A stretch of DNA of 14,754 nucleotides from a virus (IMGVR_UViG_2660238499_000008); one strand, 5' to 3'. Counted from the first letter of the stretch, positions 2,941-14,754 are shown. Notes: a model not told the origin generated them from the sequence alone. Program-made: numbers and translations.

Positions 2941-3774
2941 ATGAACATCGAAAAAAGCAGATTAATTTCTGAGGCCGCCCCTCATCTGAACGCCTATCAG
3001 GGCACAATTAACGGTAATGAATTTGCCGCAATTGTCCCGGTTATTCCTGGTCATATCGGTGGGCGTGAAACCAATATTGTTAGCGCAAAAGCGTTACACA
3101 AAGCGTTGGGCGTGGGAAAAGACTTCTCTACATGGATCACTGATCGCATCTCTGAATATGACTTCACCATTGGGCACGATTACTCAGTCCATAAAACAAT
3201 TTCCCCAAATCTGGGGAAAAGCCCGAATGGCGCGGCTTACAGCAAGATTAAACAGTCTGGCAGACCCGGCAAAGACTATCTGTTAAGTGTCGGAATGGCG
3301 AAAGAACTGGCAATGATCGAACGCACCGAACAGGGCCGCGCTATCCGCCGTTATTTCATCCAGTGCGAGGAAGAATTACAGCGTAGCGTGCCTGAAATCG
3401 CCGCCCGCTATCGTCGCCAGCTAAAAGCCCGTATCAGTGCCGCCAACCTGTTTAAACCGATGTGCGTAGCGCTGGAAAGCGCCCGCGCAGAACAGGGTAA
3501 ACAGACGCAGGCTCGCCACTACAGCAACGAGAGCAACATGATCGCCCGTATCGTGCTGGGTGGCATGACGGCGAAGCAGTGGGCGCAGGCAAATGGCATT
3601 ACTGGCGAACCACGGGACAGCATGAACGCAGCACAGCTTGAACACCTCGCCTATCTCGAAAGCACCAATATCACGTTAATTGATATGGGTATGGGATATG
3701 ACCTGCGTAAAGCCGAGCTAATCCGCCTCTCTCAGCGCTGGTTAGCTAAACATCTGGGGGCTAATCATGCTTAA
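2941..3774 (+). CDS. Phage antirepressor, AntA-like N-terminal domain plus KilA-C (ANT) C-terminal domain
   Basis: 277-aa ORF, RBS ggag 6-7 nt upstream. N-terminal segment (NIVSAKALHKALGVGKDFSTWITDRISEYDFTIGHDY) resembles the AntA domain. Central segment (GRPGKDYLLSVGMAKELAMIERTEQGRAIRRYFIQCEEEL) resembles the KilA-C antirepressor domain. Confidence 0.82.
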   Translation: MNIEKSRLISEAAPHLNAYQGTINGNEFAAIVPVIPGHIGGRETNIVSAKALHKALGVGKDFSTWITDRISEYDFTIGHDYSVHKTISPNLGKSPNGAAYSKIKQSGRPGKDYLLSVGMAKELAMIERTEQGRAIRRYFIQCEEELQRSVPEIAARYRRQLKARISAANLFKPMCVALESARAEQGKQTQARHYSNESNMIARIVLGGMTAKQWAQANGITGEPRDSMNAAQLEHLAYLESTNITLIDMGMGYDLRKAELIRLSQRWLAKHLGANHA

Positions 3775-3945
3775 TGCCGCCATCCAGAATAAAGCCTTTC
3801 CCCTGGCTGGCCTGATGTATGCAAATGTTAACGTCTGGAGCAAAGCAGCCCGCCGCCAGATTGCGACAAATAGCGACGTTTGGAACCTGTCAAAACCTGA
3901 CATTTGCCACCGCCAGATCTTTACAAATCTTGGTGTTTTCGGGAC

Positions 3946-4176
3946 AAGTACGCACGCGCATGAATGCGAAGCTGGCATAACAGTGCCAGCTAATGCCATC
4001 TCCTCATTTTCTCGTCGTGGTGACGAGGAGAGTTTCGAGACCAGTACGCGCACGAAGATTTATTGGGGGTCACTACGCGAGGAAGATTTTCCCATCATCA
4101 CTACACGAGGCGGGAAGATTTTTCTGACATCACCACTAGATGCAGGGAATTTATGCAACAGTACGCGCACGCGCGA
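3946..4176. repeat. Repeat-rich, probably non-coding region: three direct copies of GTACGCRCRCG and three degenerate tandem ~30-bp units (GAAGATTT...TCACTACRCGAGG)
   Basis: GTACGC(A/G)C(A/G)CG at 3948-3959, 4044-4054 and 4161-4175. Tandem ~30-bp units at about 4052-4082, 4081-4110 and 4113-4142. A GC-stem/UUCG-loop hairpin at about 4388-4407 followed by a U-rich tract. The 311-aa ORF the track draws across this region has low-complexity, non-protein-like composition. Confidence 0.5.
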
Positions 4177-4510
4177 AGGTGAGTTTCTGGAGTCCATAAA
4201 AAAGGGCTTGCCGACTATCGCCAACCCGGTTTATGGTTATAGCGCACCAGCAAAATCTGGTGTCGGGATTGGAACCCCGAACACACTAAGGGCGACACAG
4301 ACGCCGAAAGCGTCTTTTTTTGTGTCCATTCACTACGCACATCAAATCAGCGGACTTACCCGTACTGTATCAATGGTGGCGTTAGTGGGGCTACGTTCGC
4401 GTAGGCCGGTTTCCTTTGTGTCCGGTAGTTCCAACCCTGCTAACGTCACCGCCACTATTAAGATTGGAACCTTATGCGGTGACTCCTTAAACACAAAGGA
4501 GGCTGCCATA

Positions 4511-4702
4511 ATGGCTACTACCCCTACCCAAAAACCGCAATTTATCTGGATTATCGCAGCAGTTCGCCGCGATATGCCGACAATTACCGCCAAAATTCAC
4601 CATATCGCCGCAGAGACTGAGCAGGAAGCCCGCCGCATTCTGGCGCGGGATCACGTTTGCTTTTTTGCCGGACGTATTCGCACAGGGGGCGCACATGCTT
4701 AA
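4511..4702 (+). CDS. Small protein, possibly host cell-division-inhibitor Icd-like
   Basis: 63-aa reading frame (MATTPTQKPQFIWIIAAVRRD...ARRILARDHVCFFAGRI) with its own strong RBS (aggagg 8 nt before ATG at 4511), embedded at the 3' end of the long track ORF 3767-4702. The Icd-like assignment is from recalled similarity to small proteins of P4-like prophages and is not verified. Confidence 0.45.
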   Translation: MATTPTQKPQFIWIIAAVRRDMPTITAKIHHIAAETEQEARRILARDHVCFFAGRIRTGGAHA

Positions 4703-4874
4703 TTACTTCCGTGTTGCAGGATGCGCCACCGCCCGGAGCGGCGAATTAGTCGAGTTCGTTTATATCGTTGACGCCCGCAGCGCGATCAGCGCCAAAGCTG
4801 AGGCGCTAAATCAGGCCAGAAATGAACGCCTTTCCCACATCCAGATTACCCGCATTCGTGAGGTGGCGGCATGA
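4695..4874 (+). CDS. Hypothetical small protein
   Basis: 59 aa from ATG at 4695 (track shows an upstream TTG at 4665). The ATG overlaps the stop of the previous gene (ATGCTTAA); G-rich RBS upstream. Start choice uncertain. Confidence 0.4.
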   Translation: MLNYFRVAGCATARSGELVEFVYIVDARSAISAKAEALNQARNERLSHIQITRIREVAA

Positions 4875-5185
4875 GCATGTATAACGATTTAGTGTCCTGC
4901 AACTTTGATGGTTGTACACCTGATGATCTGAACGGAATTGAGAGCTGCGCCAGTGATGCCGTGGATGATTTAATGCTGGGCGTAAGTGCCATTGGTAGCC
5001 TCATGTTCTGGGCGGCTGGTAGCGATGGCTACCCGGAGGAAAGCGCTAAGGCTGATATGTACAGATTAGGCGCAATGCTGGGACATATCGGAGAAGTTGC
5101 GCGGGCGCTGAACGATAGCGCTGCAAACGCCGCATTCTTGCGCTCAATCAGTGAAAAAGAAGCCAAAGGGAGGGCGGGCAAATGA
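4871..5185 (+). CDS. Hypothetical protein
   Basis: 104-aa ORF; ATGA start/stop overlap with the upstream gene; same strand and operon context. Confidence 0.55.
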   Translation: MSMYNDLVSCNFDGCTPDDLNGIESCASDAVDDLMLGVSAIGSLMFWAAGSDGYPEESAKADMYRLGAMLGHIGEVARALNDSAANAAFLRSISEKEAKGRAGK

Positions 5186-5445
5186 ACAGAACTACCATCT
5201 ATCGCCACCCGGCAGAGCTGGAAGCCGAAGCGATGCTATCTCGCAAAGAAGCATACCCGGATGATTTTACGCTGGCAGACCGAACAGCAGAACGCATGAC
5301 CCGCGCCCGCAATGGGCTGGCTCACGTTATGACCGATTTATTACCACTCCTCGAAGTTGAGCAAGCAGCCATCGCGTATTGCTGGCTGAGTAAAGTCCTG
5401 ACGATTGTCGATATAGCCAGAATTGATGCGGAGGGCAGCGCATGA
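5182..5445 (+). CDS. Hypothetical protein
   Basis: 87-aa ORF; ATGA start/stop overlap with the upstream gene. Confidence 0.55.
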   Translation: MNRTTIYRHPAELEAEAMLSRKEAYPDDFTLADRTAERMTRARNGLAHVMTDLLPLLEVEQAAIAYCWLSKVLTIVDIARIDAEGSA

Positions 5446-6068
5446 GCAACGCACCGACCATTAAATCTGGAAATGCCGACTTATTACACGCAGAAGCCAC
5501 ACCGCACGGCGTAAACATCATGACCCGCAATGATGCCGGGATGTATGAGCATGTTGCTCTTATCAGCTACGAGAGCGCCGTGAACGGCCTTGACGCCGGA
5601 GAGTACGACGATAAGCCAGATATCGGATACGCCATTCATTTTGCCGTTGCTGATGGCGGGGCGCGTGGCTGGTTCGACTTCACCGCGCAGCATAACGTCA
5701 CTATGTGGCGCTGGCTGATTGCTGCGACGTTCATTTCTGAGATGAAGCGCGAAAACGGCACAACCACGGTAACTGAGTCTGACGGCACTTCATCGCAGGT
5801 GGCGATTTACTCCAATGGCACGGCGGGGATTGTGGTTTACCCGTTCGCGGAACGTCTGGCGATGGCTAACAACATGGAGGGCGCAATGATTGAGCGATAC
5901 GGCGTCGAACAGGGTACGGAAAAAGCCATTGTTTTTTATCAGGCCATGATCGACACGGAGCGCGGCGAGTTGACCCCGTTCGGGCGTGAAACGCTTGCTG
6001 AACTTCACAACAGCTTTATAGCTGAACTGGATGAAAACGGCTGGCCTGAAATGCCGCTGCCGCACTGA
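5442..6068 (+). CDS. Hypothetical protein
   Basis: 208-aa ORF; ATGA overlap with the upstream gene; no motif recognised. Confidence 0.6.
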   Translation: MSNAPTIKSGNADLLHAEATPHGVNIMTRNDAGMYEHVALISYESAVNGLDAGEYDDKPDIGYAIHFAVADGGARGWFDFTAQHNVTMWRWLIAATFISEMKRENGTTTVTESDGTSSQVAIYSNGTAGIVVYPFAERLAMANNMEGAMIERYGVEQGTEKAIVFYQAMIDTERGELTPFGRETLAELHNSFIAELDENGWPEMPLPH

Positions 6069-6077
6069 GGGGGCGAC

Positions 6078-6419
6078 ATGATTACTAAAAATTTCCGACT
6101 GAATGCGCTGGCGAATAAGTATGCGTCGGCACTGTATAACCACATTACCTCCACCAGCGGCGGTGACTATTTCATGGTTGATGCGGACGGCCTCGCCGTC
6201 CGTGTGGAAATCGTCAATGGAGTAAAAGGCTTTCGCAGCCTGATCGATAGCTACACACTGGCAGCCATGAAAGTGTCCTACCCGCAGTGGGAAACCGTGG
6301 GGATCGCGCTTCTTGAGCGTTGCGTCACTAAGGACGGATTAACTGACGTCGGGCGCGAGATATGGCAAAGCATGGTTAAAGACATGGGCGCGACCGTGGC
6401 AGGGGGCAACCATGCGTAA
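6078..6419 (+). CDS. Hypothetical protein
   Basis: 113-aa ORF with strong RBS (gaggggg); its stop overlaps the primase start (ATGCGTAA). Confidence 0.6.
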   Translation: MITKNFRLNALANKYASALYNHITSTSGGDYFMVDADGLAVRVEIVNGVKGFRSLIDSYTLAAMKVSYPQWETVGIALLERCVTKDGLTDVGREIWQSMVKDMGATVAGGNHA

Positions 6420-9177
6420 TATCGATCTTATCCGCGAAGTGACCAGTGCCGCCGCCGGGCGCTGGCCTTATGTGCTGGCTGGATTGTCTATCGACGTGCC
6501 TGATTCATCGCGCCGCCATTCTCCATGCCCTGCATGTGGTGGAAAAGACCGTTTCAGATTCGACGACAACGGGCGCGGTAGCTTTATCTGCAATCAGTGT
6601 GGCGCTGGTGACGGTTTAGACCTGATTAAGAAGGTGAACAACTGCGACACTACGGAGGCGGCACAGCTTGCCGCTGATGTGCTGGGTATTGATTACCGGG
6701 CAGCGCAAACCGACCCGGTGGCAGCGAGCCATAGAAGAGAGCAACTGGAAGCTGACCGCCAGCAGCGTGAGCAGGAGCGCCAGAAACAGGCAGCAGAGGA
6801 TGCAGAGCAGCGAAGGGCTACGTTTGCCCGTCTGTATGCCGGAATGCGCCAGAGTGCCACACAGGGAGAATCTGATTACCTGCAATCAAAAGGGCTGACC
6901 GGGTTTAACTATCCGGTTATGCCGGATGGTTCGTTATTGCTGGAGCTGGTGGACGAATCCGGCGCAGTGGCAGCAGCGCAAACCATTACACCGCAGGGAG
7001 AGAAGCGACTCCTGACAGGTTCAGCAAAGCGCGGGGCATATCACGCCGTAAACGCACCAGAACAGCCGCAGAGCGTATTAATTGCCGAGGGGCTGGCGAC
7101 GGCCCTGTCCGTTCACCTGATGCGCCCGGACGCGCTTACAGTGGCGGCAATTGACGCCGGGAACCTGATCCACGTTGCCGGAGTAATGCGCCGGAAACAC
7201 CCGCAGTCGCAAATTATCATTGCCGCAGATAACGACCACCAGCAGGACGAACAGGCGAACACGGGCAAAGATGCCGCAGAGAAAGCCGCCTTATCCGTGG
7301 CTGGCTGGGTGGCGCTGCCGCCGACAGACTACAAAGCCGACTGGGACGACTACCGCCAGCAAAACGGGCTGGAAGTCGCTACGGCTGCGTTTAACGATTC
7401 GATGTACCAGATTCAGGGGGAAGCCGTGAAACCGCGATTGCAAGCCATTGAGGGCGGTAAAACTGACCATCCAGAGAAAGACCCACTAAAACCCCACATT
7501 GAGAGCCGAAAAGATGGCGTTTTCTGGGTAACGCCGAAGGTGGACAAGGAAAGCGGGGAGATCATCAACGCTGAAAGCTGGTTATGTTCACCGCTGGAGG
7601 TTATCGGCACGGGACGCGACGACAAAGATCAGTATCTTATTATCTCATGGCTGGCATTTGGTGCAGGCATACCGACAACAGCGGCTATCCCGCTGGCTGA
7701 TATTGGCGAGCGTGAAGGCTGGCGCACCCTGAAAGCTGGTGGCGTCAACGTCACAACGAAAAACAGCCTACGGGCGATTCTTGCCGACTGGTTACAGCGA
7801 AGCGGCTCGCGTGAATTGTGGCGCGTTGCTCATGCTACAGGCTGGCAGTGCGGGGCATACATCATGCCGGACGGGGAAATCATCGGCACACCTGAGCGGC
7901 CTGTTTTGTTCAGCGGGCGCAGTTCAGCCGCTGCCGGGTATACCGTAGCAGGAACGTCGGAAAGCTGGCGTAACAGTGTTGCGCGGCTGGCATACGGTAA
8001 TTACGCGATGATGACAGGCATCGCCGCAGCACTGGCAGCGCCATTAATCGGGGTGGCAGATCGTGACGGATTCGGGATTCATTTTTATGAGCAATCGAGC
8101 GCCGGGAAAACAACCACGCAGAACGTGGCGAGCAGTCTATACGGCAACCCTGATGCCTTGCGCCTGACGTGGTACGGGACGGCGCTGGGGCTGATAAACG
8201 AGGCCGCCGCCCACAATGACGGGCTGATGCCACTGGATGAAGTCGGACAGGGCGCTGACCCGATAAGCGTTTCTCAGTCTGCCTATGCCCTGTTTAACGG
8301 CGTGGGGAAATTGCAGGGAGCAAAGGAAGGAGGCAACCGGGATCTGAAACGCTGGCGCACCGTGGCAATCAGCACCGGGGAAGTGGACTTAGAAACCTTC
8401 ATCGCCACCGCCGGACGCAAGACCAAAGCCGGGCAACTGGTGCGCTTGCTGAATATCCCGTTAAGTAAGGCGGTGCGCTTTCATGAACACCAGACAGGGA
8501 AAGAACACGCCGACGCGCTGAAAGATGCTTATCAGCACCATCATGGCGCTGCCGGGAGGGAGTGGATCAGATGGCTTTCAGACCACCAGCAACAGGCGAT
8601 TGATGTCGTTCGTGAGTGTGAAGCCCGCTGGCGCAGTCTAATCCCTGCCGACTATGGGGAACAGGTTCACCGTGTAGGGGCAAGATTTGCCATTCTGGAG
8701 GCCGCTTTACTGATGGGTGGCGTGGTTACTGGCTGGGATGCTCAAACGTGCCGGGATGCGATACAGCACGCCTATAACGCATGGCTAAAAGAGTTCGGCA
8801 CGGGGAACAAAGAGCACCAGCAGATCATCGAGCAGGCGGAGGCATTTTTAAATGCCTATGGCCTGAGTCGATTCGCGCCGCTGCCTTACGACCCCGCCAG
8901 CCTGCCGATTCATAATCTGGCTGGATACAGGCAGCGCGGAAATCATGACGATTCACCGATAACGTTTTACACGTTCCCCGACACTTTCGATAAGGATATT
9001 GCTAAGGGGTTTAACAGGCAGCAGGTGGCCCGCGTCCTGAAAGAATCGGGGATGCTTACCCCTTCAGCAGACGGAAAAAAATTTCAGAGGAAAAGCCCGC
9101 GCATTCAGGGGAGGCAGATTAACGTTTACGTTTTGCAATTCCTGCCGGATGGGGAGGAAAGCCAGCCAGGGCAATAA
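6412..9177 (+). CDS. Replicative primase-helicase (P4 alpha-like): N-terminal zinc ribbon, TOPRIM domain, C-terminal Walker-A/B NTPase
   Basis: 921-aa ORF. Zinc-ribbon CPACGG...FICNQCG near the N-terminus. TOPRIM-like acidic motifs (IAEGLATA; IIAADNDHQQDE). Walker A-like SSAGKTT and Walker B-like LMPLDEV in the C-terminal half. Immediately followed by an iteron array. Confidence 0.9.
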   Translation: MRNIDLIREVTSAAAGRWPYVLAGLSIDVPDSSRRHSPCPACGGKDRFRFDDNGRGSFICNQCGAGDGLDLIKKVNNCDTTEAAQLAADVLGIDYRAAQTDPVAASHRREQLEADRQQREQERQKQAAEDAEQRRATFARLYAGMRQSATQGESDYLQSKGLTGFNYPVMPDGSLLLELVDESGAVAAAQTITPQGEKRLLTGSAKRGAYHAVNAPEQPQSVLIAEGLATALSVHLMRPDALTVAAIDAGNLIHVAGVMRRKHPQSQIIIAADNDHQQDEQANTGKDAAEKAALSVAGWVALPPTDYKADWDDYRQQNGLEVATAAFNDSMYQIQGEAVKPRLQAIEGGKTDHPEKDPLKPHIESRKDGVFWVTPKVDKESGEIINAESWLCSPLEVIGTGRDDKDQYLIISWLAFGAGIPTTAAIPLADIGEREGWRTLKAGGVNVTTKNSLRAILADWLQRSGSRELWRVAHATGWQCGAYIMPDGEIIGTPERPVLFSGRSSAAAGYTVAGTSESWRNSVARLAYGNYAMMTGIAAALAAPLIGVADRDGFGIHFYEQSSAGKTTTQNVASSLYGNPDALRLTWYGTALGLINEAAAHNDGLMPLDEVGQGADPISVSQSAYALFNGVGKLQGAKEGGNRDLKRWRTVAISTGEVDLETFIATAGRKTKAGQLVRLLNIPLSKAVRFHEHQTGKEHADALKDAYQHHHGAAGREWIRWLSDHQQQAIDVVRECEARWRSLIPADYGEQVHRVGARFAILEAALLMGGVVTGWDAQTCRDAIQHAYNAWLKEFGTGNKEHQQIIEQAEAFLNAYGLSRFAPLPYDPASLPIHNLAGYRQRGNHDDSPITFYTFPDTFDKDIAKGFNRQQVARVLKESGMLTPSADGKKFQRKSPRIQGRQINVYVLQFLPDGEESQPGQ

Positions 9178-9201: not shown

Positions 9202-9462
9202 GTGGTGGTTCAGGTGGTTCAGGTGGTTCAGTAAGTAATTGTTATTGATTTATAATGTTTTTTTGTAAGAAATTGAACCACCACTGAACCACCAAACGGG
9301 TATTTTGAACCACCAGAGAGAAACGGATTATTTTCACTGGCTGGCAGTGAACCACCAAGAAGGGCGACTGAACCACCAGATAAATTTAAAAGGTGGTTCA
9401 GCAAAACCCAGAGTTGGCGCGGCCTAGAGGGGTACTGAACCACCTGAACCACCTGAACCACC
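9202..9462. repeat. Iteron-type origin of replication: 12 copies of the 8-bp core GGTGGTTC / GAACCACC
   Basis: Three tandem 9-bp units GTGGTTCAG at 9205-9231 (forward). AT-rich spacer at about 9232-9272. Six dispersed copies (9274-9282, 9284-9293, 9306-9314, 9347-9356, 9368-9377 reverse; 9392-9401 forward). Three tandem reverse units at 9436-9462, followed by a T-rich/AT tract. Position directly after the primase-helicase gene matches P4 ori/crr-type logic. Confidence 0.82.
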
Positions 9463-11096: not shown

Positions 11097-11195
11097 CCCG
11101 CGCCAGCAGAGGGCTGGAAACCAGAGCGTGATTTAGGTCGTCCAGAATATTCTGGTTCGCGCCACTGGTACGCAGTACGCAGTCAGGTACGCAGC
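11097..11195 (+). promoter_or_regulatory. Regulatory module copy A: CTGGAAACCAG dyad, perfect 14-bp palindrome CCAGAATATTCTGG, and three GTACGCAG heptamer repeats
   Basis: CTGGAAACCAG at 11114-11124; CCAGAATATTCTGG at 11142-11155; (G)TACGCAG at 11168-11175, 11176-11182 and 11187-11194. About 50 bp upstream of the TerS-like gene. About 85 bp is recognisably duplicated at 11692-11776. Confidence 0.5.
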
Positions 11196-11241: not shown

Positions 11242-11619
11242 ATGAAAAAAAATAGCCAACAATCAAGATCCGGATGGGGTGGCAAGCGGAAAGGCGCAGG
11301 CGCACCGTTGGGCAATACTAATGCCGTCAAACATGGCGAACGCAGTAGGCGGGCATTCTTCCCGTTTGAGGGAGAAGATGCGCTTTCTCCGCTGGTGCGA
11401 AATCGTGCAAGAAACCTCATGATGGCTGAGAGATACGGGCTATTACTGGCGACTAATCCGACGCCGGGAACAGAAGAATGGCGCGAGATGACATTGATTA
11501 ACGGACTCATGGGGCTACATGCCGACAGAATCGCACGGCTTGAGCTGAGTTTAGCGAGATCCGTTTCAATGCAAGCAAGGCGGGATCTGCGAAGGGTTAA
11601 AAAAAACGGCGCATGTTAG
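11242..11619 (+). CDS. Small basic protein with GxPxGNxNAxKHG motif; possible terminase small-subunit-like / packaging-redirecting protein
   Basis: 125-aa ORF. N-terminus GGKRKGAGAPLGNTNAVKHGERS resembles a motif I associate with phage small-terminase-family proteins (recalled, not verified). No large terminase or capsid genes in the element. Confidence 0.5.
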   Translation: MKKNSQQSRSGWGGKRKGAGAPLGNTNAVKHGERSRRAFFPFEGEDALSPLVRNRARNLMMAERYGLLLATNPTPGTEEWREMTLINGLMGLHADRIARLELSLARSVSMQARRDLRRVKKNGAC

Positions 11620-13884: not shown

Positions 13885-13929
13885 TTACAGATTTACTTTC
13901 TTTGCAATCGATATCACATGGAGTGGGCA

Positions 13930-14754
13930 ATGAACGAACATCATCAACCTTTTGAAGAAATACGGCATTATGGCACTGAAGGGCAAGAATTTTGGTCAGC
14001 GAGAGAATTGGCACCGTTACTGGATTATCGGGACTGGCGCAATTTTCAAAAGGTACTTGCCCGCGCGACTCAAGCGTGCGAAGCCAGCAATCAAGCTGCA
14101 TCTGACCATTTCGTTGAAACCACCAAAATGGTTGTATTAGGTTCAGGGGCTCAACGAGAACTTGAAGATGTTCATCTCTCCCGCTATGCCTGTTACCTGG
14201 TAGTACAAAACGGCGACCCTGCGAAACCGGTTATTGCGGCAGGACAAACTTATTTTGCTATCCAGACCCGACGGCAGGAGCTGGCTGACGATGAAGCTTT
14301 CAGGCAACTTCGTGAAGACGAAAAGCGTCTTTTTCTGAGAAATGAATTGAAAGAACATAACAAACAATTAGTTGAGGCAGCGCAGCAAGCTGGGGTAGCG
14401 ACAGCTATCGATTTCGCCATATTTCAGAATCATGGTTACCGGGGGCTGTATGGTGGATTAGATCAGAAAGCCATCCATCAGCGGAAGGGGCTGAAAAAGA
14501 GTCAGAAGATCCTGGATCATATGGGTTCAACAGAACTGGCGGCTAATCTCTTTCGAGCTACCCAAACAGAAGAAAAACTTAAGCGGGATGGCGTGAATTC
14601 AAAACAGCAAGCTAACACCACACACTTTGACGTAGGTCGCAAGGTGAGGCAAACCATTCAGGAACTTGGCGGAACCATGCCTGAGGAGTTGCCGACCCCG
14701 CAGGTCAGCATTAAGCAGTTGGAAAACAGTGTAAAAATTACAGAGAAAAAATAG
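13930..14754 (+). CDS. dinD: DNA-damage-inducible protein D (DinD), core chromosomal SOS gene
   Basis: 274-aa ORF from ATG 13930 (RBS ggag 6 nt upstream; the track ORF starts 4 codons earlier at 13918). N-terminus MNEHHQPFEEIRHYGTEGQEFWSARELAPLLDYRDWRNF matches my recollection of Escherichia coli DinD. Preceded by a consensus LexA box. Stop codon is the last 3 nt of the window. Confidence 0.88.
   Translation: MNEHHQPFEEIRHYGTEGQEFWSARELAPLLDYRDWRNFQKVLARATQACEASNQAASDHFVETTKMVVLGSGAQRELEDVHLSRYACYLVVQNGDPAKPVIAAGQTYFAIQTRRQELADDEAFRQLREDEKRLFLRNELKEHNKQLVEAAQQAGVATAIDFAIFQNHGYRGLYGGLDQKAIHQRKGLKKSQKILDHMGSTELAANLFRATQTEEKLKRDGVNSKQQANTTHFDVGRKVRQTIQELGGTMPEELPTPQVSIKQLENSVKITEKK

Follow-up and report, generated by a model that had tools for sequence, protein, structure and literature searches.

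The RNA-based immunity systems closest to the locus described here are those of the satellite P4 (with its seqA and CI RNAs), of phages P1 and P7 (the c4 RNA of immI, icd-ant) and of Gifsy-1 in Salmonella (the isrK-orf45-anrP locus, with IsrK and STnc1160). The isrK and C4 RNA families have been equated with seqA and CI of P4 (PMC3632133, PMC10111431), and isrK and C4 have been reported in Gram-negative phage-inducible chromosomal islands (PICIs) (PMC10111431), both points being already published. In Gifsy-1, IsrK has its own terminator and a read-through transcript, and its middle hairpin pairs with a downstream C4-like region from which a processed RNA of ~80 nt is made (PMC4825925). In P4, according to the account of Forti et al. 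1999 given in PMC10111431, translation of the eta gene suppresses the immunity-specific termination. Here, we describe a related locus in a viral stretch of 14,754 nt (IMGVR_UViG_2660238499_000008, hereafter the window, all of whose positions are counted from its first letter), with attention to positions 3775-4510, whose features lie on the + strand. This region contains, at 4244-4510, a complete IsrK/C4 immunity cassette (of the P4 seqA/CI and P1 a1b1/c4 type), and we hold with considerable confidence that 3767-4702 serves a P4/PICI-like satellite as its immunity region, with a construction resembling that of eta-kil in P4 and with the logic of P1 c4. The original prediction had proposed an RNA-based immunity locus of the P1 c4 or P4 CI type in this place, and this proposal is borne out by two full-length RNA genes, a compensated fold and covarying pairing sites.

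Both RNA genes were recognised by Rfam models over their full length. The isrK family (RF01394) matches 4244-4320 on the + strand with 76 bits (gathering score, 50 bits) and the C4 family (RF01695) matches 4369-4456 with 81.3 bits (gathering score, 45 bits), positions 1-87 of 87 of the model being matched. In addition, c4-a1b1 (RF03163), the Rfam motif for the a1 and b1 targets of C4, matches the 5' half of isrK below its gathering score (43.5 against 46.7 bits, E = 2e-9). A scan of species-representative genomes yielded 13 related loci containing isrK and C4, from Kosakonia, Enterobacter, Lonsdalea, Kluyvera, Buttiauxella, Shimwellia, Pluralibacter, Klebsiella, Raoultella, Escherichia and Leclercia, and isrK precedes C4 in all 13 (among the locus labels used below, L001 is the island of E. 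coli GDSC2239PM, L002 that of Kosakonia, L015 is P4 and L016 phage D6). The parts of the two RNAs, with the putative promoter in front of them, are the following:

4199-4237, + strand: putative internal promoter, with an A-tract (4199-4204), a -35 element TTGCCG (4208-4213), an 18-nt spacer, a -10 element TATGGT (4232-4237) and a start near 4244
4244-4320, + strand: isrK/seqA/a1b1-like RNA, with hairpin 1 (4244-4263), hairpin 2 carrying a1 in its loop (4267-4276), b1 in a linker (4281-4291) and an intrinsic terminator (4299-4322, from a terminator scan)
4369-4456, + strand: C4/CI-like antisense RNA, with closing stem 4374-4390/4435-4451
4391-4404, + strand: hairpin 1 of C4, CUACG-UUCG-CGUAG, with a UUCG loop
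4410-4421, + strand: b2 loop of C4 hairpin 2
about 4427-4437, + strand: a2 single strand of C4
4452-4454, + strand: invariant CCA of C4, directly after the closing stem

The fold of C4, a long closing stem around two hairpins, is supported by covariation, since in a comparison of 14 sequences (P4 and D6 included) 15 of the 28 consensus pairs show compensatory changes; in isrK, six of 16 pairs are compensated across the related loci. A hairpin with a GC stem, a UUCG loop and a U-rich tail had been noticed earlier in this region. The hairpin exists (4391-4404), but it is internal to C4 and is no terminator, and its supposed tail is the start of C4 hairpin 2 with the targeting loop; the single terminator-like site of the region is the one at 4299-4322, at the end of the isrK-like RNA. 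The promoter elements and the preceding A-tract are kept in 13 of 14 loci, in the layout that P4 shows upstream of seqA (TTGCCT-18-TATAGT, the homologue of PLE). The promoter is assigned by this homology with PLE and would probably be constitutive.

The sites through which C4 would act are found on both sides of it:

4267-4276, + strand: a1, GATTGGAACC, in the loop of isrK hairpin 2
4281-4291, + strand: b1, ACACAC-UAAGG, in the isrK linker
4462-4471, + strand: a' target, GATTGGAACC, a direct repeat of a1 just 3' of C4
4491-4500, + strand: b' target, ACACAAAGGA (in the RNA form compared with b1, ACACAAAGG), running into the Shine-Dalgarno sequence
4498-4502, + strand: Shine-Dalgarno sequence GGAGG of icd, overlapped by b'

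The loop of C4 (UCCUUUGUGU, 4412-4421) has a perfect 10-nt complement in ACACAAAGGA at 4491-4500, and the C4 single strand GUUCCAACCC (4428-4437) is complementary to GAUUGGAAC, which is present at both 4267-4276 and 4462-4471 (the perfect a2:a' complement in the window being the 7 nt at 4464-4470). These complementarities covary across a set of 15 loci composed of the window, 12 of the 13 genomic loci, the P1-like phage D6 and P4. In each of the 15, b2 and b' match perfectly over 8-10 nt despite the existence of 13 distinct loops, against a mean match of 3.9 nt when b2 and b' of different loci are combined; the b' site always sits 33-38 nt 3' of C4; a2 is perfectly complementary over 7 nt to both a' and a1, with seven alleles; and b1 of the isrK linker tracks b' from locus to locus. 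Folding and covariance across homologous elements, suggested as a check together with the original prediction, support the idea of a small RNA (its processing being presumed) that pairs with repeated targets in the leader: a2 and b2 are complementary to sites in isrK and at the icd Shine-Dalgarno sequence in every locus of the set. The predicted a1b1/a2b2/a'b' layout is that of phage P1 c4, and the true repeated targets of the RNA are, as read from these complementarities, a1/a' and b1/b'.

L001, the closest relative in E. coli, has flanks 100% identical to those of the window and a different allele of the a/b cassette (4266-4495 in the window, 11567-11810 in L001), the swapped segment reaching from the loop of isrK hairpin 2 to just before the Shine-Dalgarno sequence; from its sequence, such a swap is a signature of heteroimmune variants. 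No phage with the immunity allele of the window was found in INPHARED (best identity 72%), and the same C4 allele occurs in one 16-kb IMG/VR contig, whose homology to the window starts at the promoter (4199). Two further look-alikes of the pairing sites are regarded as coincidence: a third a-like site (GTTTGGAACC at 3878), located in leader sequence (module A, see below) that is constant across homologues with different C4 alleles, and a likeness of the C4 loop (TTTGTGTCC at 4319, 3' of the isrK terminator), in a stretch that is constant in all alleles whatever their loop. In phage D6, the isrK-C4-icd cassette is preceded, at a distance of ~430 nt, by a second, weaker C4-like match (2564-2643) whose 40.2 bits fall short of the gathering score.

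The cassette is located inside a long open reading frame (ORF) between two recognisable genes, as had been stated for the flanks (an antirepressor and an Icd-like gene):

2941-3774, + strand: AntA/AntB-type antirepressor gene (Pfam AntA, 76.7 bits)
3767-4702, + strand: Eta-like long ORF of 311 aa (BLASTP to P4 Eta, E = 5e-13)
4511-4702, + strand: Icd/Kil-like gene of 63 aa (NCBIfam phage_ICD_like, NF033153, 73.5 bits against a cut-off of 25)

In P4, the C4 model matches CI (8420-8507, minus strand) and the isrK model matches seqA (8615-8692), both inside the 214-aa ORF 8168-8812 (minus strand) that is Eta, which matches the Pfam family Phage_ASH and ends in the Icd-like Kil. The 311-aa frame of the window, to judge from its similarity, is homologous to P4 eta, its end enclosing the nested kil/icd: the frame contains the putative internal promoter, both RNA genes and, upstream of them, three repeated boxes (discussed below), and icd/kil forms its end in the same frame, starting at the ATG at 4511. 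Its start overlaps the antA stop by 8 nt (ATGCTTAA), and such an overlap with the upstream stop (of 4-49 nt) is found in 12 of 14 loci, P4 included, suggesting that translation of the long ORF is coupled to that of the upstream gene. An identical 10-nt junction (CATGCTTAAT, in which ATG overlaps TAA) is found between antA and the long ORF (3766-3775) and between icd and the next ORF (4694-4703). Overlapping stop/start junctions continue downstream in the operon that runs from icd through the primase gene (6412-9177), and these ATGA-type overlaps down to primase indicate one translationally coupled operon.

The frame is kept open without selection on its amino acids upstream of icd. Across isrK and C4, a single frame stays free of stops for 215-356 codons in every one of the 14 satellite-type loci and in P4, while in phage D6 the longest open stretch across the RNA genes is of 46 codons. 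Variable sites are spread evenly over the codon positions in C4 (18/17/18) and isrK (14/19/18) and concentrate on the third one in icd (18/15/49), as expected of a coding gene; likewise, differences between eight closely related pairs are distributed 152/166/135 upstream of icd and 58/50/182 within it. In one pair with the same allele, the RNA cassette differs at four of 240 nt and icd at 20 of 186 nt, pointing to a constraint on the cassette at the nucleotide level. Thus, the description of the ORF as protein-unlike stands in that there is no amino-acid selection upstream of 4511 and that AlphaFold gives a mean pLDDT (predicted local distance difference test) of 30 for the 311 aa; it does not stand in that the open frame is conserved and that 429 homologues (of 225-273 aa) of its N-terminal 156 residues are found in the database. 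In the same way, a region taken to be probably non-coding turns out to lie inside a homologue of P4 eta, in a part without amino-acid selection. Since the opening is conserved upstream of 4511 without selection on the amino acids, what keeps the frame open seems to be translation as such and not the protein made. Translation of the 311-aa frame had been held to refute an RNA-based locus, but in P4 translation of eta and the CI RNA coexist on different transcripts, as far as the account in PMC10111431 goes. In four loci (L010, L011, L013 and L014, at about 4700-5770 in each), the long frame that spans isrK and C4 departs from the icd frame beyond C4, crosses all of icd and ends 4-211 nt past its stop, the overshoot being 4 nt in L014 and about 170-210 nt in L010, L011 and L013.

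Compared with P4, the window shares the order PLE, seqA, CI, seqC inside a long ORF whose start overlaps the upstream gene, the geometry of the promoter and the position of the cassette upstream of a primase operon. It differs in the length of the ORF (311 against 214 aa, the extra ~100 aa being leader modules A-C with the boxes), in the upstream gene (an AntA antirepressor here, the AlpA/Vis-like orf88 in P4), in its a/b specificity and in its primase, of the DUF927/Toprim_3 type, and the sid, psu and delta genes were not seen in the window. With P1/P7 immI, it has in common a C4-family RNA, pairing at two sites of which b' covers the ribosome-binding site of icd, a1b1 as a decoy further upstream, and alleles that are heteroimmune. 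The P1-like D6 shares the order isrK-C4-icd; unlike in the window, no long ORF spans its RNA genes. In the P1-type systems, however, the antirepressor lies downstream of icd and is the regulated output, whereas here it is upstream and outside the control of C4. The likeness to Gifsy-1 consists in the IsrK RNA with its own terminator, the read-through transcript and the pairing of the middle hairpin with a downstream RNA of the ~80-nt kind (for the window, from the sequence alone); the difference is that the downstream frame of Gifsy-1 is a 45-aa upstream ORF coupled to an antirepressor, with trans-activation stressed, and here it is icd/kil followed by replication genes. The window also resembles the "Bro zone" of PICIs (PMC10111431) in containing an integrase, the int-alpA motif, AntA (of the Bro network), Phage_ASH with C4 and isrK, primase and single-stranded DNA-binding protein (SSB) genes, and the order of zones given there (Integration, Bro, Replication) matches, C4 and isrK being presented in that source in summary only. 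Unlike in PICIs, late or capsid genes were not recognised in the window, which makes it a candidate member only. The locus differs from the known ones in a new specificity allele, in an antirepressor that lies upstream and not downstream of the cassette and in about 100 extra codons of modular leader.

By analogy with the work on P1, P4 and Gifsy-1, the locus would operate as follows. Transcripts would start near 4244 from the internal promoter (-35 at 4208, -10 at 4232) and most of them would end at 4299-4322, giving an IsrK/seqA-like RNA of ~77 nt that carries the decoy sites a1 and b1. Those that read through would be processed to a C4/CI-like RNA of ~80 nt (4369-4456), probably by RNase P, as its tRNA-like closing stem is followed by the invariant CCA. 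The b2 loop and a2 of C4 would then pair with b' (4491-4500, over the Shine-Dalgarno sequence) and a' (4462-4471), blocking translation of the icd/kil-like gene and, through polarity (Rho-dependent in the systems studied) or premature termination, switching off the coupled downstream operon as far as primase, so that the element would remain quiescent and immune to incoming elements of the same specificity. When the upstream promoter fires, ribosomes from the antirepressor gene would, through translational coupling, move into the 311-aa frame and translate across isrK, C4 and their targets, which is expected to prevent both termination and antisense pairing and so to bypass immunity.

Several observations weigh against this scheme. 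The promoter has only eight of 12 consensus matches and, falling below threshold, was missed by a consensus scan. In the window, b1 is an imperfect partner of C4 (5 + 4 bp with a 2-nt bulge). The antirepressor precedes the cassette, an arrangement not shared by P1 and Gifsy-1, and that the output of the RNA here is replication genes is suggested by gene order alone. The IsrK-like RNA has different roles in P4, where it is needed for termination, and in Gifsy-1, where it is a trans-activator. Finally, in L001 two overlapping ORFs (called "ash family" and "Icd-like" by the Prokaryotic Genome Annotation Pipeline, PGAP) take the place of the single long frame, the break being caused by the cassette swap, and an unbroken frame is therefore not indispensable.

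The boxes named above are three direct copies of GTACGCRCRCG, to which the original prediction had given, together with three degenerate tandem units of ~30 bp, the role of the repeated targets of the RNA. Both kinds of repeat are real:

3948-3962, + strand: box 1, GTACGCACGCGCATG, where modules A and B meet (from the protein alignment)
4044-4054, + strand: box 2, GTACGCGCACG, where modules B and C meet
4053-4144, + strand: three degenerate ~30-bp tandem units, GGAAGATTTTyC...CATCACTAC, equal to module C
4161-4175, + strand: box 3, GTACGCGCACGCGCG, where module C meets the conserved core, 83 nt 5' of isrK

Exactly three copies of the box, all on the + strand (3948, 4044 and 4161), exist in the window, where 0.04 are expected by chance and none of 200 shuffles reached three; in each, purines and pyrimidines alternate without a break over 11-15 nt, and each forms the end of a longer repeat of 22 nt (TTTCGGGACAAGTACGCACGCG and relatives). 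The tandem units are spaced 28 and 32 nt apart and are 63-72% identical; Tandem Repeats Finder fails to report them, and autocorrelation across 4033-4195 gives z = 3.1-4.1 at shifts of 28, 32 and 60, a maximum reached in one of 500 shuffles. Alignment of the homologues divides the leader into three in-frame modules (A, aa 18-61; B, aa 62-93; C, aa 94-132) each of which is either present or absent as a block, and the boxes coincide with their junctions. In the DNA of loci without module C, the left flank of box 2 is joined to the right flank of box 3 within the GTACGCGC|ACGCGCG run, and in several E. coli elements homology to the window starts at or near box 3. Among 103 homologous ORFs, module B alone is the commonest arrangement (43), and the combination A+B+C of the window occurs in none. 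The 7-mer GTACGCG, in 170 kb of related loci, has 19 of its 29 occurrences as + strand copies no more than 400 nt upstream of isrK. As the box is read in two codon phases in two loci, it is a motif at the DNA level. The boxes and the 30-bp units are outside the RNA pairing scheme, and most likely they are direct repeats in the DNA that serve as points of gain and loss for in-frame modules of the Eta-like leader.

That they are targets of the small immunity RNA on a leader transcript is hardly credible. They are non-random direct repeats confined to one strand, and transcripts from the upstream promoter would include them; against this, they lie upstream of the internal promoter and would thus be absent from the immunity transcript, and the true targets are elsewhere and covary, which the boxes do not. 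A search for a segment complementary to the box on the same transcript, as had been suggested, found as best C4 match a 6-nt CGCGUA in hairpin 1 that varies by allele while the box is constant, and no meaningful complementarity to C4 or IsrK was seen (an unconstrained duplex scan of the boxes against both RNAs was dominated by artefacts). In addition, 3 of 15 related loci scanned (14 distinct elements) have no box, nor has P4. The GAAGAUUUU part of the 30-bp units has seven A/U-rich bases complementary to the invariant loop of isrK hairpin 1, with no covariation in L003. Rather unlikely, too, is the idea that boxes and units are sites for a DNA-binding protein, either operators or iterons that tune the internal promoter or a secondary replication origin. 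They form a direct-repeat array with a spacing of roughly three helical turns immediately upstream of the promoter, one box is at a fixed -83 in seven of the 15 loci scanned and at -74 to -95 in four more, and a second cluster with a GTACGC core (GGTACGCAG, three copies, intergenic, 11167-11195) is conserved in L002. On the other hand, the fixed position of box 3 may reflect homology alone, the evident origin iterons (GGTGGTTCA / TGAACCACC, 9204-9462) are of different sequence, by which a role as replication origin was rejected, the unit-bearing modules are dispensable in most homologues, and no candidate binding protein was identified. Two other candidates for this stretch were discarded: the tandem units match neither STAXI (a motif of repeated pseudoknots sometimes found near c4 RNAs, PMC2864571), which gives no hit at E <= 10 within 3600-4750, nor any other Rfam family at E <= 10, and presumed conserved RNA hairpins in module B (3971-3992 and 3999-4031) are broken by changes in Lonsdalea without compensation. 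That the 22-nt repeats are active sites of a dedicated shuffling of modules in the "Bro-zone" leaders of satellites, or operators for a regulator of the immunity promoter, strikes us as a quite unlikely proposal; if true, the Eta-like frame would be a "translation-only" ORF in which the in-frame gain and loss of modules tunes length and composition and, with them, the efficiency with which ribosomes override RNA immunity.

The two remaining explanations concern the products of the locus. It is highly improbable that the 311-aa ORF is a functional "Ash" or repressor protein, as labelled by PGAP, Pfam and PHROG, to which the RNA matches would be secondary. Phage_ASH (PF10554) matches with 68 bits, PHROG families called "transcriptional repressor" cover the same stretch, and this explanation would also account for the numerous homologues and for the single frame open in all satellite-type loci and P4. 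Nevertheless, the Phage_ASH match (aa 157-256, nt 4235-4534) coincides exactly with isrK, C4 and a'b'; third-position bias is nowhere seen upstream of the icd ATG and is strong in icd; the RNA cassette changes less than icd in the within-allele pair; the N-terminal parts are mosaics unrelated between loci and match no domain; and the "cI protein" annotated in P4 is a historical label for an RNA gene (PMC3632133). A folded domain was also rejected, given the low pLDDT and the finding that none of 10 long ORFs has a Pfam domain other than Phage_ASH. More room, though still doubtful, has the explanation that the locus works in the manner of Gifsy-1, a short IsrK-like RNA opening an inactive long transcript in trans and activating translation of icd and the downstream genes. 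The components are the same, pairing of IsrK with the C4-like region and downstream activation were shown in Salmonella (PMC4825925), and a1/b1 of the window are complementary to a2/b2 of C4. This explanation is, however, compatible with repression by C4, being the same circuit viewed from the other side; seqA is required for immunity in P4 (PMC3632133), and b1 of the window is a weaker partner than b', which favours binding of C4 at the Shine-Dalgarno site. A C4-type immunity region inside an Eta-like frame remains the reading that we prefer.

Of the features looked for in a Gram-negative PICI or P4-like satellite, the window has an integrase gene (1-1260), an int-alpA RNA motif, primase, SSB and iterons, and no AlpA match in Pfam and no sid, psu or capsid gene was recognised within it. 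The int-alpA motif (Rfam RF02996, 61.8 bits) is at 1269-1334, directly after the integrase gene, and is present in eight of the 13 related loci. The primase and SSB genes are separated by three iteron arrays (GGTGGTTCA x3.1 at 9204-9231, TGAACCACCAC x1.9 at 9274-9294 and CTGAACCAC x3.1 at 9435-9462), which together are probably the replication origin of the element. The three-copy intergenic cluster at 11167-11195 (GGTACGCAG / AGTACGCAG) lies ~50 nt upstream of the ORF 11242-11619 and is kept in Kosakonia (L002, 10633-10660); it shares the GTACGC core with the boxes, and six of the seven + strand GTACGC sites of the window fall within the boxes and this cluster, which may be a regulator site or a coincidence. 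A gene with a Bro-N domain (44 bits, 13918-14754), a second member of the Bro network far from the "Bro zone", leaves the right end of the window, where the H1 island ends instead with PerC-family and pRiA4b ORF-3 genes adjoining dinD.

The locus represents a presumed RNA immunity switch of the textbook kind in a probable chromosomal satellite, in an unusual gene order and with replication genes as the presumed regulated output. Its modest value lies in the lesson for annotation, in the generality of the open, unconstrained Eta-like frame and in the repeats at the module junctions. The labels "Ash family protein", "transcriptional repressor" and, in P4, "cI protein" arise from translating two RNA genes. 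The a and b sites, which covary three ways, are legible in the sequence itself and would allow homo- and heteroimmune satellites and phages to be predicted. The conserved but unconstrained frame supports extending the P4 model, in which translation overrides immunity, to many satellites of the Enterobacteriaceae.

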